From a virus: a DNA stretch of 64,000 bases. Below, piece by piece: positions 3,556 to 59,847 of this stretch (positions within the stretch are counted from its first letter, which is position 1; each line of letters begins with the position of its first letter). Made by a program: the position numbers and the translations under genes. The stretch lies in the IMG/VR virus record IMGVR_UViG_3300020036_004192, positions 1-64,000 of that record; one strand, 5' to 3'. A model generated the notes under the pieces. It saw nothing but the letters and a program-made list of their open reading frames with translations, was not told where the DNA came from and did not search any database.

Positions 3556-6500
3556 TTGGGTAAATCATTTGCCCACCTTCATCTGCATACAGAGTATTCC
3601 ATGCTCGATGGCGCAGCGAAGGTGGATGGAGTTGTTGCGGCGGTGGCTGAAGATGACCAGCCAGCAGCAGCTATCACTGATCATGGTAACATGTATGGCG
3701 TTATCCCCTTCTACAAGGCGGCTAAGGCGGCTGGTATAAAACCTATTATTGGTAGCGAGTTGTACCAGGCTAGGGACCACAGAACTGAACGCATCACCAG
3801 TAAGGGGAAAGTAAAAGATGGCGGTGGTGAAACTGAAGACAATCTGAAGCAGTATTATCATATAACCACTTTGGCTGAGACTAATGAGGGTTATCAGAAC
3901 CTTATTCAACTGTCAAGTAAAGCTTACTTAGAGGGGTATTACAAGAAACCTAAAGTAGACTGGGAACTTCTAGAGCAACATTCTAGAGGCATCATTGCGA
4001 CGACAGGCTGCCTTGGCGGGCATGTCTTACAGGAACTACTTAATAAGCGAAGAGGTAAAAGGGACAACTATAATGCCGCCCTAGCTAAAGCTGCTCGATT
4101 GCAAGATATCTTTGGTAAAGATAATCTGTTTATTGAAATTCAAGATCATGGTTTAGAAGAGCAGACTTTTACAAACCCTTCGCTTATGAGGATAGCTAAG
4201 AAGCTAAACGCTCCGTTAGTTGCAACTAACGATAGTCATTACGTGCATAAGCATGATGCAGAGTCTCATGGGGCTTTACTTTGTCAGCCCCCTGGTACAA
4301 AAGTTCTTAGAGTTACTGGAACGACTTTAGCTGGTAATCCAAGGGGGTCCTCGTGGAAGGTTCTAGTTGATGCCACCAATATAGAGGATATAAGGGTTGG
4401 TGATCGGGTAGTCTCTTGGTCTGGAAAAGATAGGAAAGGACGAGTCCATAAACTTGGTAACTATGTGACTCAGGTTGGATCAAGACAATATCTTGGAGAA
4501 CTTATAAAGGTAAATCTGACTAGTGGAGAAGAATCTCGATATACCGACGATCATATCTGCATAGTTAGACTGGATTCTGATCCGACTGATGGTAACTATG
4601 TAACCTACATAATGCGTCAAGGAAGTAAATACAGGATTGGGTCGACCCAATTCCAAAGGATTAGGTCTAAGAATAGGCCTGGAACCGGAGTTTTAGGATT
4701 AATAGCTAGGGCTAAAGAACAAAATGCTGATGCAATATGGGCTTTAACTGTTCACAAAACAAAGGCAGAAGCTAATCAAGAAGAACTATTCATAAGTCAA
4801 AAGTTTGGAATTCCTACTTGGTCTTTTTATGATGTAAGGAAAAGTTTGCCTAGAACTGACTATTACAAGCCCCTATGGGAGCGAACCACCGGAGAATGTG
4901 ATCTTGAAGCTAGGGCTAAAAACTGCATTAGCTCATATAATAGAAAGTTTGAGTATCCATTCTGGGATGTCCGAACTTTACAACCGGGGCAAAGAAGGAC
5001 TAACGAGATAAGAGCTTGTAATTTATTATCTGGGATGTTGATGTGTGCTCCTGGTCTTAGTAGTAGTGTTCATACTTATGCAGGATCGGGTGCGTGGCAG
5101 GCTATCACTGTAAGTAGAGAAAATTATTCTGGTGATGTTTATTCTATTGATGTTTCTGAAGATCATACATACATAGCTGATGGAATTGTAACACATAATT
5201 GTGTCCAAACGGGTTCTAGATTATCCGATCCTGACAGATTTAAGTTCACAGGTGAAGAGCACTATATTAAAACCGCTGAAGAAATGCGTTATCTGTTTCG
5301 TGAAGTTGAAGTCGCTTGTGACAACACGTTACTTGTAGCTGAGCGTTGTAACGTTGAAATAGACTTTCATCGACCCTCTATGCCAGAATTCCCTCTGCCA
5401 ATTGGCTTTAATGATTATAAGTCTTATCTACATCATCTCACTTTTGAAGGTGCTGTTGAGCGATGGGGTCAAGATCTTCCAGATGAAGTTATCTATAGAC
5501 TAGGCTATGAGTTGGATGTTATATCTAACCTTGGGTTGGAATCTTACTTCTTAGTTGTATGGGACCTAATTCGTCATGCTAAAGAAAATGGGATTCGTAC
5601 CGGCGCAGGTCGGGGTAGCGCCGCTGGAAGCGCAGTAGCCTATTCTCTAGGTGTAACAAACATTAACCCTATCAAGTACGATTTGCTGTTCGAACGTTTC
5701 TTAAATCCAGATAGGGTTTCTATGGCAGACATAGATATGGACTTTGATTCACGTTATCGTGATCATATGATTAATTATGCTGCACAGAAATATGGGCGTG
5801 ACCATGTTGCCCAAATCATTACGTTCTCAACTATTAAGGCGAGGGCTGCCGTGCAGGACGCAGCTAGAGTCTTAGGTTATGAATTCGATGTGGGACGTAA
5901 TATTAATAGGCTCATGCCCAAGCTTATAGCTGGCAGAAGCACTCCACTTCATGCTTGCTTTGAATTGAAAGAAGAATTCAAAGACGGCTATGGCTTAGCA
6001 AAGGATTTGCGTGAGCTATATAACCGCGATCCAGATACTAAAAAAGTTATTGATGTCGCCCTGGGACTGGAAGACCTGCGTAGGCAGGACGGCATCCATG
6101 CGGCAGCCGTAATTATCACCAAAGATCCTTTAACTGACTATGTGCCGATTCAACGTAAGAATAAAGTCAATCAAGACCCAGAAGAGGCCCCTATCGTAAC
6201 CCAATATGAGGCTACGGCTTGTGATGACTTAGGGTTATTAAAGATGGATTTCTTGGCTTTAAGGAACCTTGATGTTATAACTGATACACTTAAACACGTT
6301 AAGTCCCGCCAAGGAGTAGAGGTTGATATTGATGAACTTCCCTTAGAGGATGGTAAGACGTTTGACCTACTACAGTCAGGTCACGCTATAGGTGTTTTCC
6401 AGCTAGAATCTAAGGAAATGCGGAACCTCATGAAACTCTTGGAACCGAATTCCTTGGATGACGTAGCAGCCCTGGTGGCTTTGTACCGTCCTGGCCCTAT

Positions 6501-7740
6501 GGCAGCTAATATGCATAAAGATTACGCTGACAGAAAGACTGGTCGCAAACCTGTCACCTATTACCATCCTGATCTTGAAGATGTGCTTTCCAGCACATAC
6601 GGTCTGATGATCTATCAAGAAAGCATCATGAAGGTTGCCCAGAAAATGGCTGGCTATTCTCTGGCTGAAGCAGATATGCTCCGAAAAGCAATGGGTAAAA
6701 AAGATAGGAATCTTATTGCTGCTGAGCGGGACAAGTTTGTTCAAGGGTGCATAGCCCAGGGGTATGGAACTATAGGCCATTCTTTGTTCGACATCATGGA
6801 ACCATTTGCCGATTATGCTTTTAACGCTAGCCATGCTTACTCTTATGGCTTTATTGCGTATCAAACCGCATACCTTAAAGCTCATTATCCAGTCGAGTAT
6901 ATGGCAGCGTTACTAACCAGCGTGATAGATAAGTCAGATAAGCTAGCTATCTATTTAAATGAATGTAGACGAATGCAAATCCCCGTCTTGGTCCCAGACA
7001 TTAACAAATCAGGAGTTGATTTCGCGCCAACCGAGGACGGGGCCATCCTGTTCGCCATGGCAGCCGTAAGAGATGTTGGTCAGGCTGTATCGGTGAGCCT
7101 TGTTGAAGAGTACGGTGGCCCTTATTCCGATTTTCACAAGTTCATTAAGGATGGACCTATGGCTCTTATAAATAAGAAGGCACTTGGTTCGTTGATTAAT
7201 GCAGGTGCATTTGATTCTTTAGGCCATAGTCGCAAGGGCCTGCTAAGTATTTATGAAGATTCATTAAAGAAATCTAAGAGGCATCAAAAAGATGAAGATA
7301 ATGGGGTCATGACTTTGTTCGATGTGTTTGAACATGACGTGGCGATTCCCCTTGAAGAGTTTTCCCGTGAAGAGAAAATGGCTAAAGAAAAGGAAGTTCT
7401 TGGGGTTTATGTTAGTGATCATCCTTTAATTGGGATGGAGGGAATACTAGAACAGGGTAGGGAGTTTACTATAGGTGAACTAGTGGAGTCTAAGGGTAGT
7501 GCTTATGTAAGCACTACAGGTATGGTTAGTAATATACAAAAGAAGATAACTAAGAAAGGGGATTGGATGGCTACTTTTAATTTAGAAGATTTAGAGTGGA
7601 GTGTTGAAGCTGTCGTATTCCCAAAAGACTATCCAAAAGTAATATCTCTTCTTAACGAGGACTCTGTGGTATGGGTTAAAGGTAGAATGTTAGAGGATAA
7701 CAATAAGCTATCTGTATCTAAGGTAAAAACCCTAGCATGA
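3556..7740 (+). CDS. dnaE: DNA polymerase III alpha subunit (DnaE-type, PHP domain) interrupted by an intein
   Basis: PHP motif HLHLHTEYSMLDGA and the GAGRGSAAGSAVAYSLGVTNINP polymerase motif. TTG start with an AAGGA RBS upstream. The intein-free length of about 1088 aa fits a phage DnaE. Confidence 0.9.
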   Translation: MGKSFAHLHLHTEYSMLDGAAKVDGVVAAVAEDDQPAAAITDHGNMYGVIPFYKAAKAAGIKPIIGSELYQARDHRTERITSKGKVKDGGGETEDNLKQYYHITTLAETNEGYQNLIQLSSKAYLEGYYKKPKVDWELLEQHSRGIIATTGCLGGHVLQELLNKRRGKRDNYNAALAKAARLQDIFGKDNLFIEIQDHGLEEQTFTNPSLMRIAKKLNAPLVATNDSHYVHKHDAESHGALLCQPPGTKVLRVTGTTLAGNPRGSSWKVLVDATNIEDIRVGDRVVSWSGKDRKGRVHKLGNYVTQVGSRQYLGELIKVNLTSGEESRYTDDHICIVRLDSDPTDGNYVTYIMRQGSKYRIGSTQFQRIRSKNRPGTGVLGLIARAKEQNADAIWALTVHKTKAEANQEELFISQKFGIPTWSFYDVRKSLPRTDYYKPLWERTTGECDLEARAKNCISSYNRKFEYPFWDVRTLQPGQRRTNEIRACNLLSGMLMCAPGLSSSVHTYAGSGAWQAITVSRENYSGDVYSIDVSEDHTYIADGIVTHNCVQTGSRLSDPDRFKFTGEEHYIKTAEEMRYLFREVEVACDNTLLVAERCNVEIDFHRPSMPEFPLPIGFNDYKSYLHHLTFEGAVERWGQDLPDEVIYRLGYELDVISNLGLESYFLVVWDLIRHAKENGIRTGAGRGSAAGSAVAYSLGVTNINPIKYDLLFERFLNPDRVSMADIDMDFDSRYRDHMINYAAQKYGRDHVAQIITFSTIKARAAVQDAARVLGYEFDVGRNINRLMPKLIAGRSTPLHACFELKEEFKDGYGLAKDLRELYNRDPDTKKVIDVALGLEDLRRQDGIHAAAVIITKDPLTDYVPIQRKNKVNQDPEEAPIVTQYEATACDDLGLLKMDFLALRNLDVITDTLKHVKSRQGVEVDIDELPLEDGKTFDLLQSGHAIGVFQLESKEMRNLMKLLEPNSLDDVAALVALYRPGPMAANMHKDYADRKTGRKPVTYYHPDLEDVLSSTYGLMIYQESIMKVAQKMAGYSLAEADMLRKAMGKKDRNLIAAERDKFVQGCIAQGYGTIGHSLFDIMEPFADYAFNASHAYSYGFIAYQTAYLKAHYPVEYMAALLTSVIDKSDKLAIYLNECRRMQIPVLVPDINKSGVDFAPTEDGAILFAMAAVRDVGQAVSVSLVEEYGGPYSDFHKFIKDGPMALINKKALGSLINAGAFDSLGHSRKGLLSIYEDSLKKSKRHQKDEDNGVMTLFDVFEHDVAIPLEEFSREEKMAKEKEVLGVYVSDHPLIGMEGILEQGREFTIGELVESKGSAYVSTTGMVSNIQKKITKKGDWMATFNLEDLEWSVEAVVFPKDYPKVISLLNEDSVVWVKGRMLEDNNKLSVSKVKTLA
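4282..5199 (+). mobile_element. Class-1 intein (306 aa) in the DnaE PHP domain; Cys1 ... His-Asn, then Cys+1
   Basis: Host sequence ALL|CQPPGT...IVTHN|CVQTGS; removing the insert restores the conserved ALLCVQTG of PolIII alpha. Terminal HN followed by Cys. No clear LAGLIDADG motif was seen. Confidence 0.8.
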
Positions 7741-22849: not shown

Positions 22850-24865
22850 CTAAGGAATTTCACAATGGTCAGTGTTACAGAAACGCTCACCCTGTGCTTC
22901 ATTTAACTTTGACTTATAGAACTTAATAAGCTTCTTGCCCGATTGCGCAGCAAGCACCTCAGCCTCCGTAGAAGGCTCTAGAGGGGCCTGTACGTAGCTT
23001 GTACCCTCTTTGCTGATAGGAAGGAAGGAAACGCTCTTAAGGCTGCCCTGGAACGATCTGAGAAGAGGCGCAATCTGATCGGCCTCGGTATCCTTATCGA
23101 AGGATACGGTGACTGAAATCATATTATCTGACCAATACTTCTGTCCCATCGCAGCCAAGTGTGCTTTCTCCCAGATAGAAACTTCACGTTCACTTCTAAC
23201 ATTTAACCCTGTTACGGGGAACTCGACAACTACAGTTGAAGTAGGGTCATCTACGCTTGGTTCAATGGGGTATCCGGCATCTTCAAGAATTTGCACCATC
23301 GGATCGACCTTATGAAATCTCATTCGTCTTGTGAAGAAACCTGAGGTTGTAGGCCAGTGAAAACCTGAGGTAGTAGAAGCAATCAATGAAGTGCTTCCAG
23401 CAGGCTTACCTGTGGAAAGTCGAATAGACTCCCTGACCCCCAGCCAAGCCGAATACTTTTTATCCAAACCTCTTAGGTAATCGTATCCTTTGTCCATCCA
23501 TTCTTGCATTTCAAACCATGAACGGTTTTCGATGAAGTCTACAACACCCGTTATTGATACACCGATTCGTCGGTTGCGTGTGATAACTTCGTTTGTTTCA
23601 CCCCAAGGTGATGTTAGAAGAACCACGGCCTTAGCGTACATGTACGCATGCTTCATTGACGCTTTAAAGTCTTCAAGCGAGTCATGGTGTGCAGGATAAA
23701 GTTCTGATAGGCAGCATAGCTCTGATGATTCTAATGGAATCTCTGCACAAGGGTTTGTAAGATTTGCTTTGTCCTTGAAGTCAGCGGGATCTTTTAGTCT
23801 ACCATAGTTTGCCATGGTGTCAACCCAAATAATGCCTGGTTCTCCATTTACCGCAATCTTATCAACTAGATGATCTAGGTTATCTCCGTTGCGAGCAATG
23901 ATGGAGTTATTTGAAGTCCATGCCCATCCATCTTCTCCGGTTCGTTCTTTGTTTTCTTCTAGTTCCCAGTTCTTTAAGTTAACATAATCGTCGTCACTTG
24001 CATCACCTAGGCTTAGTAGCGCACTTCTTCGTGCCCCACCGGCCACAACGGCTTTACCAATCTTGTTCATAATGTCAACGATGTCACGTGAGGTAATTAG
24101 TTTACCTTCACGGTTAGATAACTGGGACACTAATGTTTCGTGCAGGGTCTTTAGTGGCCCTGGACCTGAGGCGTTCCCACCGAACCTCTTTAGTGGGGCA
24201 CCTGCTGGTCTAATCTGTGAATAATCAAAGATAACAGTGGGACGGTTCTTAAAGAAGAATGATTCCAGAAGAATACCTACAGATTTTGCCCATTCTTCTC
24301 TAGTGTCACCGATTACATATTCGATAGTTTCTTCTGTAGGGTTATGTAAGGTGAGATTGCCTGCGCCCCGAGTGTCAAACCCAACGCCTTCACCACGCAT
24401 TGACATTTCCATTAGTCTAACAAATGGGAAAGTTGCTTCATATGCCGAGTGGTGTGAAATCTTTTCAGTCGTAACGGCAGCGCAATTGATCAGGGTTGAA
24501 ATATCCCCTTCTTCATGAACCATCTCTGTCCCCATGTTAGCCATGCCCCTACCGGGCGGCGTCCATTTGAATGCAAACATTCTAGCGTAAGCATCTTCTG
24601 CCGACTTCTGCGCCTTGAACTCATTCCAAGGTGTCTTGTTGCGCTTGCAGTTATCCTTTAAGATGGAATAGTAGCCCTCAATACATCTACGACATGTTTC
24701 ATACCATTGTTCTTTTGTCCCGTCAGCCTTTTTGCGGCTATACTTTGAGACGAAGACTAGTTCTGATAGGTAGTTCCCACCACCTATGTCTAATCCCCAG
24801 TTGGGACGAACTTTTTTGTAAGTGTTTACGAACTCATCGGACAGTTTGAATGTTAAAAACTCCAC
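22850..24865 (-). CDS. nrdJ: Ribonucleotide reductase, class II (B12-dependent, NrdJ-like)
   Basis: NPCAEIPLES active-site loop with Cys, the GGARRS region, large size (671 aa), and adjacency to thioredoxin. Confidence 0.7.
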   Translation of the reverse strand: MEFLTFKLSDEFVNTYKKVRPNWGLDIGGGNYLSELVFVSKYSRKKADGTKEQWYETCRRCIEGYYSILKDNCKRNKTPWNEFKAQKSAEDAYARMFAFKWTPPGRGMANMGTEMVHEEGDISTLINCAAVTTEKISHHSAYEATFPFVRLMEMSMRGEGVGFDTRGAGNLTLHNPTEETIEYVIGDTREEWAKSVGILLESFFFKNRPTVIFDYSQIRPAGAPLKRFGGNASGPGPLKTLHETLVSQLSNREGKLITSRDIVDIMNKIGKAVVAGGARRSALLSLGDASDDDYVNLKNWELEENKERTGEDGWAWTSNNSIIARNGDNLDHLVDKIAVNGEPGIIWVDTMANYGRLKDPADFKDKANLTNPCAEIPLESSELCCLSELYPAHHDSLEDFKASMKHAYMYAKAVVLLTSPWGETNEVITRNRRIGVSITGVVDFIENRSWFEMQEWMDKGYDYLRGLDKKYSAWLGVRESIRLSTGKPAGSTSLIASTTSGFHWPTTSGFFTRRMRFHKVDPMVQILEDAGYPIEPSVDDPTSTVVVEFPVTGLNVRSEREVSIWEKAHLAAMGQKYWSDNMISVTVSFDKDTEADQIAPLLRSFQGSLKSVSFLPISKEGTSYVQAPLEPSTEAEVLAAQSGKKLIKFYKSKLNEAQGERFCNTDHCEIP

Positions 24866-24978: not shown

Positions 24979-25284
24979 TTATGGTCTGGCGGGTTCTGGT
25001 GAATCAGCGATACTCAGTGCCTCAAGTCTAGGCGCTCTAATGCGGCCAGGCGTAGCCCGGTTGCTAGTGGTTACGAATCCCCTGTCAGTGTACATATCTC
25101 TCAGGAACATATTCACAGACTCGTAGGCCATATCAAATCGCATATGTCTAGCCCTTAAGGTGACGGTATCATTGTTGGGCATTTTCAGCACAATAGTTTG
25201 TGCAGCCCGCCAATCAAGCATTTTAAGAAACTGCATCACATCGTTAGGGTGATCAGTTGTTTCTACTGTTATTGTAAATTTCAT
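24979..25284 (-). CDS. Hypothetical protein (101 aa)
   Basis: Tiled ORF. Confidence 0.45.
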   Translation of the reverse strand: MKFTITVETTDHPNDVMQFLKMLDWRAAQTIVLKMPNNDTVTLRARHMRFDMAYESVNMFLRDMYTDRGFVTTSNRATPGRIRAPRLEALSIADSPEPARP

Positions 25285-25488
25285 TTATACCTCAGATTTG
25301 TATCGCATAATAAGATCCCAAAGGTTGCAGTTGGGGCAAGCATCTCCGAGACTTCCGAGAAGCCCGCACATTCCCCGAATGGGGCCTTCCGAACATGGAC
25401 CTATTTCTAATCCAGGTCGTAGTACCGCATCGAGGATACCTTGTTCTAAATTGTAGAGGCTCATGCAGGCTGCCTTTGTGGCCGCCAC
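25285..25488 (-). CDS. Hypothetical Cys-containing protein (67 aa)
   Basis: Stop abuts the next start; the alternative overlapping frame (25292..25504) is Arg-rich and looks like junk. Confidence 0.4.
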   Translation of the reverse strand: MAATKAACMSLYNLEQGILDAVLRPGLEIGPCSEGPIRGMCGLLGSLGDACPNCNLWDLIMRYKSEV

Positions 25489-25560
25489 TTACGTAGCCAT
25501 TCACAGATTAAGTCCCATAAGGTTTTATTCTTCATTTTCAAATTTCCTTTTATGTTATAA

Positions 25561-25596
25561 TGGCGGGGCGAGAACGATTCGAACATTCATCGCCCC
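25561..25596 (-). ncRNA. tRNA-like minihelix (acceptor stem plus T-arm only) with discriminator G and encoded CCA
   Basis: - strand sequence GGGGCGA-t-GAATG-TTCGAAT-CGTTC-TCGCCCC-G-CCA: a perfect 7-bp acceptor stem, 5-bp T-stem and consensus T-loop. Sits in a divergent intergenic region. Confidence 0.45.
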
Positions 25597-25682
25597 ATGG
25601 GAATAGTATACACGAATAATGGGTTGAAGTCAAGGCTTCACTAGTCGAAGTAAATCCTACAATCTACATTAAGGATAAATGA

Positions 25683-26507
25683 ATGACAACACACGCAGTT
25701 ATACCCGACCTGCAAGTAAAACCGGGTGATCCATTGGATCATTTAACTTGGATATCCAAGTATCTACTAGAACGTAGACCAGATGTTATCGTGAATTTAG
25801 GTGACACATACGATATGGAATCGTTATGTAGCTTCGATCGTGGTAAGATTCAGTTTGAAGGTCGCCGTTATAAGGAGGATATTGAAGCAGGAAACAATGC
25901 GTTTCGACTGCTCGACGCCAGTACCGACCTTTTTAATAAGGGGCGTCGTAAGCGTAGACAGGAAGAATATAAGCCACGTAAGATTTTCTTGTTAGGGAAT
26001 CATGAGCAACGTATCGAACGTTGTATTCAAGACAACCCCATCCTTGATGGCACTATTGGTTATCAGGATTTAAATACACGTGGTTGGGAAGTGTTTGATT
26101 ATCTTGAACCTGTAGATGTTGACGGTGTAATCTATGCCCATTTTTTCCCGAACCCCATGACGGGGAAACCTTTAGGTGGTGTTGTTTCTACAAGACTAAA
26201 AACGATTGGTCATTCTTTTAGCATGGGGCATCAGCAGATTCTAGACTATTCCATGCGTTATGTCCGTGGGCAGTCCCAGCATGGGTTAGTAGCAGGAGCC
26301 GCCTATCTCGCATCAGAGGGTTACAAAGGTTACATCGGTAACCAGCATTGGCGTGGAATCATCATTAAAAATCACGTTGAAAATGGTAGTTATGATCTTT
26401 CCTTGGTGAGTTTAGATTCTCTATGTAGAAAATATGAGGGAGTGCCTGTTGGTGACTTTATGGAAGAAAAGTATCCAGAAGTTCAACCCTGGTGGCCCAC
26501 TAAATAA
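25683..26507 (+). CDS. Calcineurin-like metallophosphoesterase (PPP-family Ser/Thr phosphatase, lambda-PPase-like)
   Basis: VNLGDTYD (GDxxD), LLGNHE (GNHE) and a later GH motif. Confidence 0.7.
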   Translation: MTTHAVIPDLQVKPGDPLDHLTWISKYLLERRPDVIVNLGDTYDMESLCSFDRGKIQFEGRRYKEDIEAGNNAFRLLDASTDLFNKGRRKRRQEEYKPRKIFLLGNHEQRIERCIQDNPILDGTIGYQDLNTRGWEVFDYLEPVDVDGVIYAHFFPNPMTGKPLGGVVSTRLKTIGHSFSMGHQQILDYSMRYVRGQSQHGLVAGAAYLASEGYKGYIGNQHWRGIIIKNHVENGSYDLSLVSLDSLCRKYEGVPVGDFMEEKYPEVQPWWPTK

Positions 26508-26557
26508 GACAGAAATCTATACCTTATTCTCATTTATCACGACCCGATAATTCATAT

Positions 26558-26815
26558 ATGAGGTTCCGTATGGTAGATGAAGATTACCCAGATGACCAAG
26601 ATTTGCCGCCAGACCCGTCATTTAGCATTGTGATACGTTGGGATGCTTTAGACGGGTCTTTGCAGGTAGATATTAGGGGGGTCTCTATTATAGAGGCAGC
26701 TTCTATTCTACGTAAAGCAGAAGAGTCAGTGTATGACATGATTGAAGAGCCTGAAATTTTAACTGACGACCCGGCTGTCTGTTTTTTGTTAGATGGCTTT
26801 GACGAAGAAGATTAA
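26558..26815 (+). CDS. Hypothetical acidic protein (85 aa)
   Basis: ORF track; convergent with the - strand block. Confidence 0.4.
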   Translation: MRFRMVDEDYPDDQDLPPDPSFSIVIRWDALDGSLQVDIRGVSIIEAASILRKAEESVYDMIEEPEILTDDPAVCFLLDGFDEED

Positions 26816-44509: not shown

Positions 44510-45469
44510 CTACCTGCTAACCTGATAGAAATCAGTCCACCCATAGTTTGCACTATTCTGATATGCAATCTGCTTACCCATCAACTCCCCAAGTCGTTCA
44601 TCTCTTGCGCCAACTAGAGGATGAAGGACCGCAAGAGCCTCGTCCGGGTCTGAGGGCACCTCTACGTCTTTCAGGTTACTCATGAACTCGTAGTTCCCTA
44701 ACAACAGAGACATTTTGGCATACATTTCCCAACGCCAAGCTGAGCGTGTAGAATTCCACACTCTAAACTCCCAAGTGTCGTGACGTGTGCGGATTGCAAG
44801 ATTCGAGTGCCTGTCCGCTTCATAATGATTGTTGAATAGGTTAGCTAGCCACCATTCCCTAGTTGCCCCTCTAGGCTGACCAACCTCGACCTCTAAGGTG
44901 CTGGGCAGGGCGTCAATCTTTTTAACGTACTCACTGAACCCGGATAGCTCTCTTCTCCTAGCTTCCCCCTCTGGGGCATAATCGTACCATAGGGTGTGAA
45001 GGTTATACAGGTTTGATTCCTGAACTGACGTATTCATCGGACGGAGGCCAGGGAATCTTCCATTAGCCAGCCGGATGACTGCATCCTCCCACCGCATAAA
45101 CTGCCATAATAACTCATGGCACTGTAGAAAGTTTTCTGTAACTGGGACAACGTGAACATGAACGCCAGCGTTTGTTCCAGGCACAGCGTCAACTTCGACA
45201 GCGACTTCCTGAAGACAGTCTAGAACCTCTACAAATTCAGAGAACTCGTTTTCGTTGAAGACTTTTGTGATTAGCTCTCCAGAACAACTAGAGTCACGTT
45301 GCGCTCTTAGGGTCACAGTGCGACTCATGCAGTTGTTGCAGTCACAGTGGTATGAGTGTAATGAATCTGAGGGCAGAAGCTCAGGGTAAAGCATGTGCGT
45401 CTTCTCTACGAGAAGTTCAGCATTGTCCTGAAATTCGATTTCCATTCCAAAAGTGGTCAATAGTCCCAC
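44510..45469 (-). CDS. Phage amidoligase-like protein (paralog 1)
   Basis: Shares GxHVHV and EFRVWNSTRSAWRWE signature blocks with the 49170..49985 paralog; family assignment by recall of the phage amidoligase family, not verified. Confidence 0.45.
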   Translation of the reverse strand: MGLLTTFGMEIEFQDNAELLVEKTHMLYPELLPSDSLHSYHCDCNNCMSRTVTLRAQRDSSCSGELITKVFNENEFSEFVEVLDCLQEVAVEVDAVPGTNAGVHVHVVPVTENFLQCHELLWQFMRWEDAVIRLANGRFPGLRPMNTSVQESNLYNLHTLWYDYAPEGEARRRELSGFSEYVKKIDALPSTLEVEVGQPRGATREWWLANLFNNHYEADRHSNLAIRTRHDTWEFRVWNSTRSAWRWEMYAKMSLLLGNYEFMSNLKDVEVPSDPDEALAVLHPLVGARDERLGELMGKQIAYQNSANYGWTDFYQVSR

Positions 45470-46095
45470 ATCCCATAGTTGTAGTAGTAGCTTTTAGTGT
45501 CTGGCTTAGTTAAGGTTACAGGCTCCATCCTTTTACAGCCGATCAGAACCGTGTTACCCACTAGCTCCTTGTGTACCTTTTCAGCCTTTTTGATAGCTTC
45601 TTCTCTAGTCCCAATAATGGAGTGAATTAGTGCAGCACCAGTTTGGCTAATAGGGAAGGTTGTTAGCTTCCATCCAGGGAGCTTTTCAACTTCCTTTGGT
45701 GGTGCTGTATAGCTTCTGCTTACCTTATTCTCTCGTGCTTTATGTAGACTAAGGTATCTGTTAACCTTGTTATGAAAAGCTATGCCAGCAGCAACATCGT
45801 TAGGGTTTTTCTCTAGATGAATAAGAAGCTTGCCTAGCTTTTCCTTGGCCTTATTGGAAATTTCAATCCATGGAGAGTCTTTCCACTGTTTATTGTGACG
45901 TAGCCGTGATACTTCTTCTTCAACTAGATCATACCATTCAGAAAAGCTGATGTAATCGGGAAGCGGCACGGAATAGGTCGAATGCTGGATTAGTCCGTCA
46001 GGGAGCTTTTTTCTGACAGGTACGACTATTCTGATAGTCGATCGCCGCTGGGGTGCCGATCCTACGACGGCTCCGGTTACTTGTACAGTTGTCAT
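45457..46095 (-). CDS. Hypothetical protein (212 aa)
   Basis: Tiled ORF. Confidence 0.45.
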   Translation of the reverse strand: MTTVQVTGAVVGSAPQRRSTIRIVVPVRKKLPDGLIQHSTYSVPLPDYISFSEWYDLVEEEVSRLRHNKQWKDSPWIEISNKAKEKLGKLLIHLEKNPNDVAAGIAFHNKVNRYLSLHKARENKVSRSYTAPPKEVEKLPGWKLTTFPISQTGAALIHSIIGTREEAIKKAEKVHKELVGNTVLIGCKRMEPVTLTKPDTKSYYYNYGMWDY

Positions 46096-46102
46096 TTTTT
46101 CC

Positions 46103-47553
46103 TTAGTTCACTGGAACAAGGGACTTGTCAGGTCCCACTACGTAATCCTTGCCAGTTGAAGTTCTCACATACTTGTCCTCACTTGAGTCCACATAGGTTC
46201 CTAGATCCTCTAGGATCAACTGGAACGTGTTGAGCATCTCTGCTGTTAGACTAGTCCCAGAGTCAAGGATGTATTGTGTTGCCTGATTGAATACAATGAA
46301 ATCTTCGTTGCTTCGTGAGACTAGAACAGTGTCGAAGTCATCATACTTGTTGATCGGGAAGTACCCCTTGATCATGTATTCTCCGTAGGGGAACGCTTGG
46401 GGTAGGGAAACAATCTGCCCAACGATGGGGACATTGCCTACGCCTGTCATCACCCAGTTGCCAGGGCGAACGAAGCCGTGAAGGTCCCGAACGGTGTCAA
46501 TCACAGTGTCAGGCTCGTCACTGATATGCTTCATGAACCTATCAATAGACGCTTCACGTTCGACATACTCTTCGTCGTATTTGCCATTCCCGACGTAAGT
46601 GCCTTCGCTGAGATGGTTAACAACCGTCCCATGGGAGGCAGCAAGGGAATGAAAGGAAGAATCTGACATCACCTTTGCGATGATTTCAGTCATTGACTCG
46701 TCGCTGCCAGTTGTAGTAACAGGCAGAGTGCCCTGAGTCGGAGTGTTGGTAGATCGATTGACGTAGCCTGATCCAGTGGTGTACGTCTTCTTGGTAGGCG
46801 TCTTGTCTTCCCAGGTATTGACTGCCACGATCTTGCCAGCGTCAATCTCCATCAAAGTACCGTCAGTCAATGAGTCAACGAACAGTAGTTCCACGTCTGA
46901 AGCTGCAGCAGCCTTGTTGAGAATTTCAGCTTCAGAAGCGAAGATGAAAGACCCACCGGGAGTCTGGGCAAACACGAACGGGGACCCAGAGATTTTGGCT
47001 ACACGGAACGTTGTGGGATTCCCATCAATTTCCTGCCATGCAATTGCAGCAGAACCAGAAATCTCGTTAAGGATTTCTGGAATGGAACCGGCGATCAGAT
47101 GCTTGCCATCTGAGTCCTTCTCTAGCCCATAGGCGATGGCAGCAAAGATCGCTTCCGTGTCTACCTGGGCAATTCGTCTACCTGGGCCGATCTTCTGGAA
47201 CAAGTTGTAGTCGTTGTGCATAACTCCGTTATGAACACCAACGATGTTGCCGGTAATGATCGGGTGATTGTTGTGGTTGTTTTCGGGGCTACCCTGGGTA
47301 GCCATCCTTGTATGGAGAATGACATTCCGAGCGTCACTCGGTAGGTCAAGCTGTTCTACGAAGCTGGTGGCTGCCATTGCATCCTTCTGGATCATTAGCA
47401 CACCGTCAGTGTCGTACCATGCGGCTCCTGAGGCGTCTCGGCCTCGGGACTGGATTCCAAGAAGTAGGTTCTTGGCTAGTTGAGCGGCGTCGATGACGCC
47501 TGCGTCTTGATCTGATAGATTAATTCCTGCGATCCCACAAATGAGGACCACCC
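46103..47553 (-). CDS. Class II (Ntn) glutamine amidotransferase domain protein
   Basis: N-terminal (M)VLICGIAGI with the nucleophile Cys near the N-terminus, then HTRMATQG...NNHP; 482 aa; GTG start at 47553. Confidence 0.65.
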
Positions 47554-55078: not shown

Positions 55079-55165
55079 TGGTGAGCCGAGTAGGATTTGA
55101 ACCTACGATGTATCTTACGTCACGGATTTACAGTCCGCTTGCTTCAGCCTCTTGCATACCGACTC
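55079..55165 (-). tRNA. tRNA-Tyr (anticodon GTA), long variable arm, CCA encoded
   Basis: Hand fold: acceptor GAGTCGG/TCGGCTC, anticodon loop CTGTAAA, 14-nt variable arm, T-arm GTAGG-TTCAAAT-CCTAC, 3' A-CCA. Confidence 0.85.
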
Positions 55166-55329
55166 ATGAATTTTCAGATCCTAGTTAGGAACGGTGTTGC
55201 ATCATACTTATCTAGGATGCGGTTTGCTTCCTTACGAACTTTGTCATCCATGGAACACAGATGATGCCTAGCCCATTCTATTTCTAGGGTTTCTAGGTCT
55301 TTAACTTGGCTAAGTACCATTTTATTCCT

Positions 55330-55683
55330 TTAGAAGCCATGTTCCCAATGTGGTACGGAAAAAACCCGATCCGTTAAGCGGGATTCCGGGAAATCCGGCC
55401 CTATGTCATCTAATGATAGGCCAGTTAGTTCTAGCTGTTCCTCTACAGTAATGATTTTCCTATGAGTCACCTCAATGGGGCGGAACCCGATGGAGGTGAC
55501 ACCCCCATCTTCTCTTTCCAGATTCATGTACCCCTTCATCTTACCATGCCCGCAGCATGCAACCAAGACCCCCTTCATACGTCCCAAGCATGGATCTACC
55601 CCCATTTCGCGGCAGTCTAAACCACCAGGAGCAACTTCCACGCATTCTAGGTTGCATTCCTCGCAAACATCACCAAGTTCCAT
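55330..55683 (-). CDS. Hypothetical Cys-rich protein (starts MELGDVCEECN)
   Basis: ATG at 55683, 3 nt after the upstream small-ORF stop (ORF track gives 55698). Confidence 0.4.
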   Translation of the reverse strand: MELGDVCEECNLECVEVAPGGLDCREMGVDPCLGRMKGVLVACCGHGKMKGYMNLEREDGGVTSIGFRPIEVTHRKIITVEEQLELTGLSLDDIGPDFPESRLTDRVFSVPHWEHGF

Positions 55684-55685
55684 GA

Positions 55686-55853
55686 TTACCACCCCCACCG
55701 TTCGCCGCCAACGCTAGACCTGTAACTCTCTTTGAGAGCGACGAGAGCCTGCACTTCTGCAGCCCAAGCAATTCGTTCCTGAGCATTTGTTGCTGCCTCA
55801 AGTTCAACGACTGCATGATTCAGCCTAGTGCAAAGCGTTTTCCAATCTGGCAT
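55686..55853 (-). CDS. Hypothetical small protein (55 aa, MPDWKTLCTRLNHAVVELEAA...), below the ORF-track cutoff
   Basis: The ATG lies 1 nt after the upstream stop; helical composition. Confidence 0.3.
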   Translation of the reverse strand: MPDWKTLCTRLNHAVVELEAATNAQERIAWAAEVQALVALKESYRSSVGGERWGW

Positions 55854-55854
55854 G

Positions 55855-56049
55855 TTATTCTCCATAATCTATTTCGTTTAGGGGAACCCATCCAAACCAA
55901 CCACAAGACTCTGGGCAGCGAAACTCTGCTACTGTCTGTCCAGGAAATGAAACGATGTTGTTTCTGGTTTGTGTGTGTTCCCAATGGTCGGTGTGTTCTC
56001 GTACACGGTTTTTTGTTCTTTGTGATGCTGCTTGGGTTGCTTTAATCAT
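55855..56049 (-). CDS. Hypothetical protein (64 aa)
   Basis: Immediately follows tRNA-Arg on the - strand. Confidence 0.35.
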   Translation of the reverse strand: MIKATQAASQRTKNRVREHTDHWEHTQTRNNIVSFPGQTVAEFRCPESCGWFGWVPLNEIDYGE

Positions 56050-56052
56050 AAG

Positions 56053-56127
56053 TGCCCCCGGAGAGATTTGAACTCCCGACCAGCAAATTAGAAGTTTGCC
56101 GCTCTTTCCTGGCTGAGCTACAGGGGC
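56053..56127 (-). tRNA. tRNA-Arg (anticodon TCT, reads AGA)
   Basis: Acceptor GCCCCTG/CGGGGGC, D-arm GCTC/GAGC, anticodon stem GCAAA/TTTGC with loop CTTCTAA, T-arm GGGAG-TTCAAAT-CTCTC, discriminator A. Confidence 0.85.
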
Positions 56128-56235
56128 ATGGTAGCATACGTTTCACTCGGTATGCTAGCGAGCTTGAGCTACCTCATCCCCTTGTAGCCCTTATCCGACC
56201 ACCTTATTAAATCGGAATCCCCAACCAACCAAAGA

Positions 56236-56706
56236 TTACTGATAGTCAACGATCGTTAGGTGGATTTCACTATCTTCAAATACTTCCCGAACTACATTCT
56301 CTATGGCAGCAACTGGAAGACCGCCAATGCCTGACCCAATGCGAGGAATAGCAATTGTTCTTATCCCTATAGCCTTAGCGTGCTTCTCCATTCTGTAGAG
56401 ACTGGTCTCTATAGCATCGAGAGTTGCATTTCTGCCAGGATTAAGTTGGGTTGCAAGGTTGTAAACCGAAGGGTGACTTTGCCATTCTCCCCAATTTACT
56501 TCACCGCCACCTCCGTAGAAGAAAATATCACCTGGGATAAATAACCCACGCTCAACACGTTGCTTGTAGTCCTTAAACATTTGGGGATAACGTCGCTTGA
56601 AGATGTAAGCAATACCCGCCCCCATTACCCCACGACAATTGCAACCATGAGCTATAGCGTCAACGTCTTGCTCAAACAGATTACCCTGGATAACAGATAC
56701 AGTCAT
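56236..56706 (-). CDS. Macro domain protein (ADP-ribose / Appr-1''-p processing)
   Basis: VDAIAHGCNCRGVMGAGIA and IAIPRIGSGIGGLP glycine-rich loops typical of macro domains; 156 aa. Confidence 0.75.
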   Translation of the reverse strand: MTVSVIQGNLFEQDVDAIAHGCNCRGVMGAGIAYIFKRRYPQMFKDYKQRVERGLFIPGDIFFYGGGGEVNWGEWQSHPSVYNLATQLNPGRNATLDAIETSLYRMEKHAKAIGIRTIAIPRIGSGIGGLPVAAIENVVREVFEDSEIHLTIVDYQ

Positions 56707-57809
56707 TACTCATCCTTCCTAAATGGTAAAGTCCACTCAGGTTTTACCATCTTCCAGATTCTAGCAGAAATATCCTTGTTGTCAAGTAGAGCAAACAACA
56801 GGCCAGGATACTGCGTCTCTTTGGCTACCTCAGCGAATTGCCTACGGTCAACCTCTTGCTCTCTTGTAAGATGATCGGTGCGGTGAAGAACTTCGATGAA
56901 ATCATACGTAACTGTTTCAACAATCTCACGAAACTGATTGTTAAGCGAGTCTACTGTTTGGTTAACCCAATCAGAGAACTCATCAGGCACTTTCTCATAC
57001 AGTTCCTCCAACGGTGCGCCACTGGAAAGCATCTCCCAGATTGTACGGGAAGAAACACCAGTCACCAGCCTGTGCAGCCTGACATATTCATCAGCCTTAA
57101 CCTTGACTCTGGTAACCCCGTCACCTGAAAGGATAACGTAACCCTCAGCGCCGGTACGATCGTTAGGATCGACAGTCTCAGGATCGGTGGCTTCACCGAA
57201 GAAATCCACATGGTCAACAGGCCATTGTGCCTTCAACTCTAGGGTTTCATGATGCAAGCCTGTTTCGGTGTCAATGATTGACAACAATACCAGGCTGGCA
57301 TAGTTACCGTAGTCTACGACGATACGATTTTGGGGATAGATGATTTCAGCTAACCAAGTGAAATTCTCATCCAATTCGCACATGTCGTAGCGTTCGTTCC
57401 AGTATTCAGTGGCCCATGCAGCCTGCTCTGAAAAGAATGATCCACGTGTGGCCCACGCTAACGCCCCCGTTGATGGCAGCCTATACGCAATTCCTAGGGA
57501 ACCATCCATCTTGTCATAGACTCTGAGCGGTGGCTGTAAGTTGAGTGGTCCTGCTGCTGGGGTGCCACCGTGATGTTCACCGAGGTTGAAAAACTTTGAA
57601 AATGGTCTAGCCACAACCTCTTGGGTTTCGCTGTTGACGATCAGCCCACGGCATCGCTTGGTCACATCATCCCATCTACCAGTGTATTGACAGGTTTGAG
57701 TGTAGTTGTAGATGACTAGTGGCTCAGTTGGGTGGGCAGTCTCGCTGACGAGCCGTGCTTCTACGTGTGACCCTAAAAGCTCTACGTCTAGCAGGTCATA
57801 GATTTTCAC
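56706..57809 (-). CDS. rnlA: RNA ligase 1 (T4 RnlA-like, tRNA repair ligase)
   Basis: Collinear with T4 Rnl1: LVIYNYTQ...RCRGLIVNS...VARPFSKFFNLGE matches YRIFSYNY...ECRGIMFE...ASRPMEKFFNLNE; motif I KMDGS. Confidence 0.8.
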   Translation of the reverse strand: MKIYDLLDVELLGSHVEARLVSETAHPTEPLVIYNYTQTCQYTGRWDDVTKRCRGLIVNSETQEVVARPFSKFFNLGEHHGGTPAAGPLNLQPPLRVYDKMDGSLGIAYRLPSTGALAWATRGSFFSEQAAWATEYWNERYDMCELDENFTWLAEIIYPQNRIVVDYGNYASLVLLSIIDTETGLHHETLELKAQWPVDHVDFFGEATDPETVDPNDRTGAEGYVILSGDGVTRVKVKADEYVRLHRLVTGVSSRTIWEMLSSGAPLEELYEKVPDEFSDWVNQTVDSLNNQFREIVETVTYDFIEVLHRTDHLTREQEVDRRQFAEVAKETQYPGLLFALLDNKDISARIWKMVKPEWTLPFRKDE

Positions 57810-58106
57810 TTATAGCCCCAATTCTTTCAGAAACATTTCGATTCCATCGAAGTCATTGCCTTTCATCTCTATAAGAGCATTATAAGCCATGCTCGCTGGA
57901 ATCCCTGGATAGTCACCCTTGGACACTATTTCCAACCCCATCATATGAGGCTTGTTGAACAACAAACATCCGTTCAGCCTGAACGCTGTATGTGCGACAA
58001 ACTGTGCTTCCGCAGATTCAGGGTGTGAATGGAGATTTTTCAGTGACCATTCGTTCAGGTCATTGGTGCTCCAAGGTTCACCACAGCCAGCTACCGGGCA
58101 GCGCAT
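57810..58106 (-). CDS. Hypothetical protein (98 aa)
   Basis: Abuts the ligase start. Confidence 0.4.
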   Translation of the reverse strand: MRCPVAGCGEPWSTNDLNEWSLKNLHSHPESAEAQFVAHTAFRLNGCLLFNKPHMMGLEIVSKGDYPGIPASMAYNALIEMKGNDFDGIEMFLKELGL

Positions 58107-58120
58107 CAGAGAAGACGCAC

Positions 58121-58339
58121 CTAGAGTACGTTCACGCTGGTATTGCTATTTAGCACTTCTACCAAATAACGATCCCCACCCTCTACTTGGTTTCTTCCAA
58201 CAAATCGAGGATTGACTTGCCCACTAGTCTGGCCTGACTGTTGCCATTCAGCAACCGCCGTTAGTGCATCTTCCACGTTCCCATCATTCGGAAACGTAAC
58301 TGTTACTTCGACTTCCTTTGTCACCTTGAATACAGGCAT
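58121..58339 (-). CDS. Hypothetical protein (72 aa)
   Basis: Tiled ORF. Confidence 0.35.
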   Translation of the reverse strand: MPVFKVTKEVEVTVTFPNDGNVEDALTAVAEWQQSGQTSGQVNPRFVGRNQVEGGDRYLVEVLNSNTSVNVL

Positions 58340-58350
58340 TGTGTTTCTCC

Positions 58351-58623
58351 TTAGTAGATCGGTCGGTATGTTGCAGCCAAAGAACCATCTACCGGAATAT
58401 TGAAGTAGATATGTTCTGGCTGCTCTGGCTCGGGAACCAGGACGGTTCGCTCTGCCATTGTTACAGGGAATTCCAGAACCTTACGAATTCGCTTCATCAC
58501 GTTCTTCTTTCTGCCACCAACGCTTCTCACGTTGTTTGAATATCTTTTTAGGTATGCGCTTGTTTCTGCGACCGGAGCCTTGTGGGTAGGCTGAACAGCA
58601 GTCGCCACAGAAAGGTTTACCAC
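58351..58623 (-). CDS. Hypothetical protein (90 aa)
   Basis: ORF track; lies between 58121..58339 and the tRNA. Confidence 0.3.
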   Translation of the reverse strand: MVNLSVATAVQPTHKAPVAETSAYLKRYSNNVRSVGGRKKNVMKRIRKVLEFPVTMAERTVLVPEPEQPEHIYFNIPVDGSLAATYRPIY

Positions 58624-58668
58624 ATTTCCCTAACATATGCTGATTGCTCAACTGAACCCCATTCTTCG

Positions 58669-58742
58669 TACCCCTAGTGGAACTCGAATCCACACTGTAG
58701 AGATTTTAAGTCTCCTGTCTCTGCCAATTGGACTATAGGGGC
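58669..58742 (-). tRNA. tRNA with anticodon TAA (Leu/UUA by anticodon) but a short class-I variable loop; discriminator A
   Basis: Acceptor GCCCCTA/TAGGGGT, D-loop with GG, anticodon stem GGAGA/TCTCT with loop CTTAAAA, T-arm GTGGA-TTCGAGT-TCCAC; 74 nt. Confidence 0.6.
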
Positions 58743-58749
58743 ATGTCAG

Positions 58750-59205
58750 CTATGTAATCTCCGTGATCTTGTGCAGTCGATCGAACCCATCCTCAAGCGA
58801 AGGCGGCCACTCAACCAACTGCCTGTGCATACGGTCTAGTACATGTTCTGGAACAACCCGTTCACGCAGGGCATTCCGTTCCTTGCAAACATCGAGTGGG
58901 GTGTCAAACCAGATGCCGTGAACTTCTGCACCATGTTCGTGACAGAACTCTATCATTTTACGTCGGTCACTACGTCGTGTATTTGTTACGTCAATGACGA
59001 GGCTATCTTCACCCATCAGGATGTCGTGAACCCGCTCATAAAGAAGCTCCCAAACTTCATTATTACGACCCTGGTCACTGGCATTGCCTGTAAGTTCCTT
59101 ACGGATATCGTCCGCACAAATGTAGAAACTTTCATTCAGATCTTTACCGAGGAACGTGGTCTTACCACTTCCGGGGATTCCAATCCCAACAGTTACAACA
59201 GTCAT
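58750..59205 (-). CDS. pnk: Polynucleotide 5'-kinase (T4 Pnkp kinase-domain-like P-loop kinase)
   Basis: GIGIPGSGKTTF Walker A, LVIDVTNT, and a C-terminal WFDTPLDVCKERNALRERVVPEHVLDRM region collinear with the T4 Pnk N-domain. Confidence 0.7.
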   Translation of the reverse strand: MTVVTVGIGIPGSGKTTFLGKDLNESFYICADDIRKELTGNASDQGRNNEVWELLYERVHDILMGEDSLVIDVTNTRRSDRRKMIEFCHEHGAEVHGIWFDTPLDVCKERNALRERVVPEHVLDRMHRQLVEWPPSLEDGFDRLHKITEIT

Positions 59206-59215
59206 TCATTTTCTC

Positions 59216-59704
59216 CTATCGGGCGTAGTCGATCATTACAGTGTCGCCATCTCTGTTGATACCCATGTTCGGTGTATTCAGGTCTGAGAAATTGAACTTT
59301 GCGAACTTATCCACCTTACCCCATGCGCTATCATCAGCGGGGGCACATTTCTCCATTATGAGCCATTTGAAATCATGGGAGAACCCAATAACTTCAGCGA
59401 AGATTGTTCGGTCAGGATGCTGAAGCCAGGTTTCTAACTCCTGCTCGTTCTGTGCCCGACATGAAACGTCATACACACCACCTGAACGCATCTTTGGTAG
59501 ACGATCATAAAACCTAGGTACATCCCAAGATGATTCGCTAACATCGCTGTGAGCCATTTTGATAACAGCTTCACCAAGATCGAAAGCAGTCCTGGTGGTC
59601 CCCTTCCAAGCTGCGTGAGAGATTCCTTCTTTCAGGGACTTGTGCAGGCTGGGTAGTGCATTTGGGTAGGCTTGTGCGTTTGGGAGGATGGTGTATCCTA
59701 TCAT
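59216..59704 (-). CDS. Hypothetical protein with kinase-like catalytic-loop remnant (DLNTPNMGINRDGDTVMIDY)
   Basis: AAGGAG RBS; small (162 aa). Confidence 0.4.
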   Translation of the reverse strand: MIGYTILPNAQAYPNALPSLHKSLKEGISHAAWKGTTRTAFDLGEAVIKMAHSDVSESSWDVPRFYDRLPKMRSGGVYDVSCRAQNEQELETWLQHPDRTIFAEVIGFSHDFKWLIMEKCAPADDSAWGKVDKFAKFNFSDLNTPNMGINRDGDTVMIDYAR

Positions 59705-59761
59705 GTTTTCTCCTTGTCTAGTGGGGCCGGGGAGGATCGGCCTCCGCCGACTACGCTTTTG

Positions 59762-59847
59762 TAGGGCGAGTGAGATTTGAACTCACGATGGGCATTGCCA
59801 CATGTTTATAAGACATGCTTCTTCGAACCAGACTTGAATATCGCCCC
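59762..59847 (-). tRNA. Atypical tRNA-like gene: long variable arm, anticodon loop CTTATAA (anticodon TAT, reads AUA), 3 extra nt between D- and anticodon arms
   Basis: Acceptor GGGGCGA/TCGCCCT, 3-bp D-stem with 11-nt loop, anticodon stem CATGT/ACATG, variable hairpin GGCaatGCC, T-arm GTGAG-TTCAAAT-CTCAC. May be a pseudogene or unusual isoacceptor. Confidence 0.45.

Follow-up and report, generated by a model that had tools for sequence, protein, structure and literature searches.

A tRNA-like minihelix at the predicted start of a phage mRNA leader, a candidate processing or stability element

A 36-nucleotide (nt) minihelix, in which the acceptor stem of a transfer RNA (tRNA) is stacked on a T-arm and followed by a discriminator base and an encoded CCA, lies on the minus strand at 25596-25561 of a 64,000-nt stretch of viral DNA (positions 1 to 64,000 of IMG/VR virus record IMGVR_UViG_3300020036_004192; the whole stretch is called the window below). 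The window comes from a large tailed phage, and the minihelix in it is real and non-random. Its function we infer from its anatomy and its context: the minihelix may be a tRNA-derived processing or stability element that has been reduced to the top half of a tRNA and stands at the predicted first nucleotide of a messenger RNA (mRNA). Minihelices have served as laboratory tools for 35 years and have defined what RNase P, the CCA-adding enzyme and several aminoacyl-tRNA synthetases recognise. In the literature searched, we found no earlier description of a natural genomic minihelix in a phage, still less of one at the first nucleotide of an mRNA.

A tRNA top half at a predicted transcription start

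The sequence on the minus strand, GGGGCGA-U-GAAUG-UUCGAAU-CGUUC-UCGCCCC-G-CCA, is exactly the one described in an earlier note on this DNA. The 5' strand of the acceptor stem, GGGGCGA (25590-25596, tRNA positions 1-7), pairs with the 3' strand UCGCCCC (25565-25571, positions 66-72) in seven base pairs (bp) that are all Watson-Crick. Between the 5' strand and the T-stem lies a single unpaired U (25589), which aligns to U8 of tRNA in the covariance model presented below, while positions 9-48 are all missing and with them the D arm, the anticodon arm and the variable region. The T-arm (25572-25588) consists of the stem GAAUG/CGUUC, five base pairs including one U-G wobble, and the 7-nt loop UUCGAAU, in which the conserved T-loop bases U54, U55, C56, G57 and A58 are all present above a closing pair of the G53-C61 type. 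The discriminator G73 and the genomically encoded CCA follow at 25561-25564. Compared with a canonical tRNA, the top half is complete (7-bp acceptor stem, 5-bp T-stem, T-loop, G53-C61, discriminator plus CCA), but the cloverleaf is not formed because the D and anticodon arms are missing. The minimum free energy fold is this acceptor/T-arm hairpin with -19.8 kcal/mol, it accounts for 92% of the ensemble, and its z-score is -4.2, with none of 200 shuffled sequences being as stable. The same 36 nt were found in an independent assembly from another sample (contig L008, 100% identical), and the minihelix is not an assembly artefact.

A chance origin of this structure is improbable. In 20 Mb of Markov sequence with the dinucleotide content of the window, stems of 7+5 bp with 0-3 nt between them and a TTCRA loop occurred at a rate of 0.0064 per 64 kb of double-stranded sequence (both strands). 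When NCCA was added to the pattern, none was seen in the 20 Mb, and the expectation is ~1e-4 per window. As a second approach, a covariance model was built for tRNA positions 1-8 and 49-73 from 77 tRNAs of unrelated phage and bacterial loci, leaving out the window's own tRNAs and all tRNAs sharing the acceptor stem of the minihelix, and was run with filters off. It matches 25596-25564 from end to end, over 33 positions and with no indel, with 32.8 bits and E ~9e-8. The runner-up match in the window reaches 14.4 bits and the T-arms of the five real tRNAs 11-14 bits; on 359 kb of other phage contigs the model found nothing comparable. Because of this E-value and the rarity in the simulation, the element is, as judged from its sequence, a genuine tRNA top half in which positions 1-8 are fused to positions 49-76. 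Fold, simulation and covariance model thus agree with the earlier description of an acceptor/T-arm minihelix with discriminator and CCA, without D and anticodon arms, in a divergent intergenic region. ARAGORN, including runs with relaxed thresholds, called no tRNA at the minihelix, and Rfam gave no call even at E<=10, apart from meaningless antisense plastid matches; both are silent because 40 nt of the tRNA body are absent.

The search for a parental tRNA yielded 71 viral and bacterial tRNAs whose acceptor stem and T-loop equal those of the minihelix. They belong to Tyr, Lys, Ser, Cys, Ile, Met and Leu, and their T-stems all differ from that of the minihelix. The acceptor stem had also been taken to be the same as that of the window's own tRNA at 59762-59847. 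This is correct for the 5' strand GGGGCGA and for U8, but the 3' strands differ, with TCGCCCT in that tRNA against TCGCCCC in the minihelix. That tRNA (59761-59847) differs further by a G1-U72 pair, the T-arm GTGAG-TTCAAAT-CTCAC, discriminator A instead of G and the lack of an encoded CCA. The two may be related, though neither is a recent copy of the other.

The minihelix is preceded by a sigma-70-type promoter on the same strand, TTGACT-17-TATACT, found by a consensus scan (-35 hexamer at 25628-25633, -10 hexamer at 25605-25610). With 10 of 12 consensus matches it is among the best matches of this type in the window, and other intergenic promoters of the phage are of the same type (TTGACA-17-TATACT). 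A CAU (25597-25599) stands immediately 5' of G+1, and G+1 itself is 8 nt past the -10 box; therefore the hairpin forms the very 5' end of the predicted transcript. From the promoter geometry, transcription is predicted to start at A25598 (7 nt past the -10 box) or at G25596, which would leave a leader of 0-2 nt in front of the hairpin. The minus strand has 17 such promoter sites in 64 kb; by simple arithmetic, one of them would end 5-10 nt upstream of any given position with a chance of ~0.002. No other promoter in the window is followed by a comparable hairpin. On neither strand does a U-tract follow the hairpin, and the terminator scan does not list it. The idea of a 3'-end signal, raised in the earlier note, does not fit: the element opens a transcription unit, 8 nt past a -10 box, and no U-tract accompanies it. 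The processing signal and the tRNA remnant, which the same note had also considered, are both consistent with this context. A decoy, likewise named there, gains neither support nor contradiction from it. Its account was incomplete in that the promoter, the coupled small reading frames, the parallel promoter-tRNA units, and the genes for a CCA-adding enzyme and for RNA repair were omitted.

Downstream of the CCA, an A/U-rich spacer of 25 nt (25536-25560, minus strand) contains the Shine-Dalgarno sequence AAGGA at 25549-25545, and in the fold of the first 99 nt both the spacer and the Shine-Dalgarno sequence are left single-stranded. The ATG of a first small open reading frame (ORF) follows at 25535 (25461-25535, 24 residues); this ORF is not called in the source annotation and is presumed to be coding from its Shine-Dalgarno sequence and the ATGA overlap with the next. 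The second small ORF (25285-25464, 59 residues, four Cys) begins with the ATG that overlaps the preceding stop codon, ends with a stop abutting the next start (TAAATG) and has no family match. The third (24979-25284, 101 residues), an ORFan, starts at this TAAATG. Next downstream on the same minus strand are genes for a class II ribonucleotide reductase (22850-24865), MazG and thioredoxin. The minihelix forms the predicted 5' end of the leader for an operon with three small ORFs, which probably extends into these genes. On its other side, an inverted two-gene cassette on the plus strand (25683-26815), encoding a calcineurin-type phosphoesterase of 274 residues and an ORF of 81 residues, interrupts the minus-strand block, and a fresh promoter is therefore needed at the site of the minihelix. 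Another ATG, at 25586, lies inside the 5' half of the hairpin in frame with the 24-residue ORF and could give a product of 41 residues (25461-25586, minus strand); it is probably unused, since the -19.8 kcal/mol stem at the very 5' end encloses it.

Recurrence of tRNA-like elements ahead of reading frames

The arrangement of a promoter followed by a tRNA or tRNA-like sequence recurs in this phage. The tRNA-Met gene (20069-19995, minus strand) starts 6 nt past the -10 box of a TTGACA-17-TAAGAT promoter (20104-20076). Its first pair is an A1-C72 mismatch, which we mention as a separate observation. A degenerate tRNA-like element (21758-21643, minus strand) follows the promoter TTGACA-17-TATACT (21819-21791), about 26 nt into the leader, and belongs to the 5' untranslated region of ~195 nt of an ORF starting at 21590. 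Its T-arm, GCAAG-UUCGAUC-CUUGC, on which seven Watson-Crick acceptor pairs (CGAGUGU/ACACUCG) stack directly, is perfect, and 84 nt of little structure separate it from the acceptor 5' strand; ARAGORN reports the element only at the 80% threshold, as a tRNA-Ser(aga) with a 46-nt 'intron' in the anticodon loop. Generic matches to an acceptor stem plus T-arm with G-U pairs allowed are expected 0.54 times per window; for all-Watson-Crick matches, the number obtained by scaling is ~0.004.

A third case stands before an ORF as well. It is a 56-nt tRNA-like element of the same phage on contig L106 (3518-3573, plus strand), ~3.6 kb past the end of the window, which is also present on contig L107 from another sample. 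Its sequence, GGUAUGU-[GGCA GAAGUUGG UGCC]-AGAGU-UUCCG UUCGACC CGGAG-GCAUACC-G-CCA, forms an acceptor stem, a hairpin resembling a D arm with GG in the loop, and a T-arm, while an anticodon arm is missing; its last bases are an encoded G-CCA, which lies 46 nt upstream of the ATG of an ORF of 174 residues. In 71 kb of the sequence of this phage, a perfect top half together with an encoded NCCA was found three times only, namely in tRNA-Tyr (ACCA), in the minihelix and in the 56-nt element (both GCCA). Among the five true tRNAs of the window, tRNA-Tyr is the single one with an encoded CCA, and the other four end at the discriminator followed by C. The presence of the encoded CCA in both truncated elements but in one of five true tRNAs fits a cis signal that presents RCCA inside a longer RNA. 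The trinucleotide CAT stands directly 5' of tRNA-Tyr, tRNA-Arg, tRNA-Leu and the minihelix alike.

Tandem arrangements of this kind are known from bacteria, for instance from the metY-nusA-infB operon of E. coli, in which a tRNA gene is co-transcribed ahead of protein genes. The order of promoter, tRNA or tRNA-like sequence, Shine-Dalgarno spacer and ORF is shared by this operon, by the tRNA-Met at 20069 and by five unrelated phage contigs (L001-L005), in which a tRNA-Arg ending in CCA is followed at once by a Shine-Dalgarno sequence and the ATG, upstream of a homologue of the phosphoesterase. The tRNAs in all these cases are complete and decoding, whereas the minihelix cannot decode.

Processing element, relic or released small RNA

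We hypothesize that the minihelix is a tRNA-derived cis element at the start of the mRNA which, similar to the t-elements of plant mitochondria, would serve as a processing or stability signal and not in decoding, and we assign this a probability of roughly 0.45. In such a mechanism, the first ~36 nt of the emerging RNA would fold first, giving the 12-bp acceptor/T-arm stack with its T-loop and the 3' GCCA. RNase P would treat the minihelix like a pre-tRNA or a hairpin model substrate and cut between U-1 and G+1, which would strip off any 5' extension, be it the short primary leader or an upstream read-through RNA. One outcome would be an mRNA with a flush base-paired 5' end, which is hard for RNase E to engage and would be resistant to 5'-end-dependent decay. 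Alternatively, a second cut in the A/U-rich spacer past the CCA would yield a free minihelix of ~36 nt and a trimmed mRNA.

Bacterial RNase P is guided by U(-1)/G(+1), by a stem of 12 bp, by the T-psi-C loop and by RCCA at the 3' end (PMC10731613). The minihelix has all determinants of this bacterial list. Pairing between the leader and G73 could involve one U-G wobble at most. E. coli RNase P RNA, alone or together with its protein, efficiently cuts synthetic hairpins made of acceptor stem, T-stem and T-loop at the canonical position (PMC11143913). The position at promoter +1, in a predicted mRNA leader and 25 nt before an ATG with a Shine-Dalgarno sequence, is of the kind in which t-elements occur. 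With regard to mRNA stability, hairpins at the extreme 5' end, such as the 5' stem-loop of ompA, stabilise bacterial mRNAs, and RNase E depends on the 5' end. The hairpin studied here begins 8 nt past the -10 box and, going by the predicted start, would lie 0-2 nt from the 5' end of the RNA. If the element is processed, phages would shape mRNA ends with the machinery for tRNA end maturation, as plant mitochondria do with t-elements, and the frequent location of phage tRNA genes directly ahead of ORFs would be explained.

The comparison with natural and synthetic RNAs shows both likenesses and differences. In plant mitochondria, the cuts by RNase P and RNase Z that make mRNA ends are directed by t-elements and by acceptor-stem-like stem-loops located in the leaders or trailers of mRNAs, and the excised t-element pieces are CCA-tailed but not aminoacylated (PMC1920247; 10.1101/2024.09.09.612099). 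Like the minihelix, t-elements derive from tRNA genes, have kept the T-psi-C arm and the acceptor stem, and are situated in the leader or trailer of an mRNA. However, they retain a non-canonical cloverleaf of ~74 nt, to which the degenerate element at 21758-21643 is nearer than the 36-nt top half found here, and processing of the latter is only predicted. The minihelix differs also by belonging to a bacteriophage and not to an organelle, by a CCA that is encoded and not added, and by its position at promoter +1. Its architecture is that of the RNase P model substrate AT-1 (McClain, Guerrier-Takada and Altman 1987) and of minihelices of the Schimmel type (PMC11143913; PMC9976931). While AT-1 and the aminoacylation minihelices are laboratory constructs, the phage minihelix is natural and continues into an mRNA; due to the extra unpaired U at the junction, C74 is its nucleotide 34, compared with nucleotide 33 in AT-1. 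Natural hairpin-type substrates of RNase P, such as 4.5S RNA, C4 RNA and transfer-messenger RNA (tmRNA), some of them phage-encoded, share with it the stem of ~12 bp, U(-1)/G(+1) and the 3' RCCA (PMC10731613). In 4.5S and C4, the T-psi-C loop gives way to an extended helix (PMC10731613), and tmRNA has a large internal domain and a G3-U70 pair. None of them has been described at the head of an mRNA leader.

Several points weigh against a cis processing element. With a leader of 0-2 nt there would be little need for cleavage by RNase P, and an ordinary hairpin could do as well. The transcription start is a prediction only. The detection of the sister elements demanded intact top halves, so that their intactness is partly an ascertainment effect. 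No related phage with the minihelix locus was found, and the sole other copy is 100% identical. Finally, a single recent deletion within a tRNA gene would give exactly this sequence without any selection.

The last point leads to the possibility of an inert relic, which we regard as rather unlikely but well worth considering: a promoter-proximal tRNA gene would have lost positions 9-48 in one deletion, and the remainder would be tolerated without doing anything specific. The unpaired U falls on U8, as after a clean internal deletion, and the degenerate element at 21758-21643, with its call at the 80% threshold and its 46-nt 'intron', resembles another tRNA gene in decay. No relatives were found in which the element is conserved, and tRNA gene fragments are reported to be frequent in prokaryotic genomes (bioRxiv 10.1101/2022.07.05.498093). 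A relic would not be expected to have all 12 pairs, the conserved T-loop bases, the discriminator and the CCA intact, nor to keep the exact placement at promoter +1, and the encoded CCA in both truncated elements but in one of five true tRNAs speaks against it as well. This case against a relic is nevertheless weak, because a very recent deletion explains the intactness equally well.

Less probable is a mini-tRNA that acts in trans, in which the released RNA of ~36 nt would be used as a free acceptor arm, be it as a decoy for host enzymes that act on the 3' ends or acceptor stems of tRNAs, as a substrate of the CCA-adding or repair enzymes of the phage itself, or as an aminoacyl carrier outside the ribosome. 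The phage has suitable genes, all on the minus strand: a short tRNA nucleotidyltransferase (62975-63697, 240 residues, PolyA_pol head domain, phrog_24229), an Rnl1-type RNA ligase (56706-57809), a polynucleotide kinase (58750-59205) and a Macro-domain protein (56236-56706). The promoter is strong according to the consensus scan, and two different truncated elements both end in G-CCA. The pairs G1-C72 and G2-C71 together with G73 are acceptor features of the serine type (PMC9976931), and of the 71 tRNAs sharing the acceptor stem and T-loop, only tRNA-Ser genes have G73. With Mom of phage Mu, there is also a precedent for a phage enzyme that uses a charged tRNA outside translation (PMC13219725). 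Nonetheless, the long variable arm, which is the main serine determinant in bacteria (PMC9976931), is missing in the minihelix, G3-C70 excludes alanine identity, and there is no G-1/C73 pair for histidine. The t-elements of mitochondria, the nearest natural analogue, are CCA-tailed yet not aminoacylated (10.1101/2024.09.09.612099). An extended version is quite doubtful as well: the 36-nt minihelix and the 56-nt element would form a small family of non-decoding mini-tRNAs which, once released, would serve in trans as free acceptor arms. Its members could be decoys for host defence enzymes directed at the 3' ends of tRNAs, could work together with the phage's enzymes for CCA addition and RNA repair, or could be aminoacyl carriers as in the case of Mom (Gly-tRNA). 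If released and active in trans, the minihelix would represent a kind of phage small RNA that is new to the conflict over tRNA.

A generic 5' hairpin, or a DNA palindrome serving as operator in the divergent promoter region, whose likeness to tRNA would be a coincidence, is very unlikely. The stabilisation of bacterial mRNAs by extreme 5' hairpins, as in ompA with regard to RNase E, would suit the former and the location between divergent genes the latter. But the match to the tRNA top-half model (E ~9e-8) and the chance expectation of ~1e-4 argue against a coincidence, and no other promoter of the window has a comparable hairpin. Due to the bulged U and the U-G wobble, the DNA palindrome is imperfect, with 74% complementarity over arms of 19 nt.

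Scarcely credible, finally, is an intrinsic terminator or a fragment of an integration site, in which the 3' portion of a host tRNA gene would have been copied as in attP. Segments from the 3' end of tRNAs, with CCA last, are typical of attP cores, but the minihelix also contains the 5' acceptor strand that such cores do not need, no genome tRNA was found that shares its acceptor stem, T-loop and T-stem (the 71 matches differ in the T-stem), no integrase turned up in the subset of ORFs that was scanned, both close to the site and in other parts of the window, the gene content is that of a large phage of the virulent type (ribonucleotide reductase, DNA ligase, tRNA-repair genes, a DNA polymerase III alpha gene), and a terminator would need the U-tract that follows the hairpin on neither strand.

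Further candidates were tried and rejected. The minihelix, one continuous hairpin that has G3-C70 and lacks an internal domain, does not correspond to the tRNA-like domain of a tmRNA, and the tmRNA search with ARAGORN was negative. For an RNase III site the stem is too short, and a riboswitch-like leader that sequesters the ribosome-binding site is not in agreement with a Shine-Dalgarno sequence that remains single-stranded.

Phage genome and relatives

The window is part of the 130.7-kb JGI metagenome contig Ga0206652_1000009, and contigs from two other samples carry sequence that is 100% identical (L008, L106 and L107). Large ORFs on the plus strand, among them those for a CHAP-domain protein and for replication, occupy 1-17.8 kb. 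The listed position of a DNA polymerase III alpha gene is 3556-7740, and the stretch just upstream of the window contains further large ORFs without family assignment. From ~17.9 kb on, many small genes lie on the minus strand, with the five tRNA genes among them. Most of the genes for RNA repair and tRNA maturation are located among tRNA genes (tRNA region 55079-59847, minus strand). The phage encodes metallophosphoesterases too, and on contig L106 one of 189 residues stands immediately upstream of the tRNA nucleotidyltransferase. Homologues of the 274-residue phosphoesterase next to the minihelix repeatedly adjoin tRNA genes in unrelated phage contigs. Apart from the tRNA-Arg of L001-L005 mentioned above, tRNA clusters are located 1-3 kb upstream of the homologue in L017-L020.

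The earlier note had proposed to look in relatives for a full tRNA at the site of the minihelix; none was found in the relatives checked, and no orthologous locus turned up. Compared by megablast with 50,697 phage records, the locus showed no similarity at the DNA level, and blastn of the 46-nt core under settings for distant matches gave a chance match only. The exact 36-mer and two degenerate minihelix patterns had 0 matches in IMG/VR. Loci anchored on the ribonucleotide reductase in IMG/VR and JGI metagenomes reached at most 68% amino-acid identity and had no neighbouring gene in common with the phage. The 101-residue ORF has no homologue among 5.8 billion proteins, and the best non-self homologues of the phosphoesterase are 66% identical and stand in unrelated contexts.

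Some further observations concern the tRNAs and other parts of the genome. The tRNA at 59761-59847 (minus strand) with the anticodon UAU, called Ile, has 87 nt and a long variable arm, while the tRNA at 58668-58742 (minus strand) with the anticodon UAA, called Leu, has just 75 nt and a short variable arm. The class II shape with a long variable arm is usual for tRNAs of Leu, Ser and Tyr. The names derived from these two anticodons may therefore not reflect the amino acid that is really charged.

The class II ribonucleotide reductase of the phage (22850-24865, minus strand) has 671 residues and no insertion; its closest relatives (64-68% identical) have 904 residues in contig L011 and 1131 in L012, with large insertions that resemble inteins or homing-endonuclease domains. 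At 44510-47551 (minus strand), an ORF with a weak match to amidoligases lies beside an ORF for a class II glutamine amidotransferase, and pairs of such enzymes occur in phage clusters for hypermodification of nucleotides or DNA.

Immediately upstream of the 56-nt element, ~1.65 kb of contig L106 (1974-3619, plus strand) contain no called gene and no plausible ORF, and the ORFs on both sides have a GC content of 62-68%, compared with 45% in the window. Rfam at E<=5 and blastn against the phage records found nothing in this region. Some of its 250-nt windows fold far better than shuffled sequences, with z-scores down to -5.2, and the region may be a large non-coding RNA.

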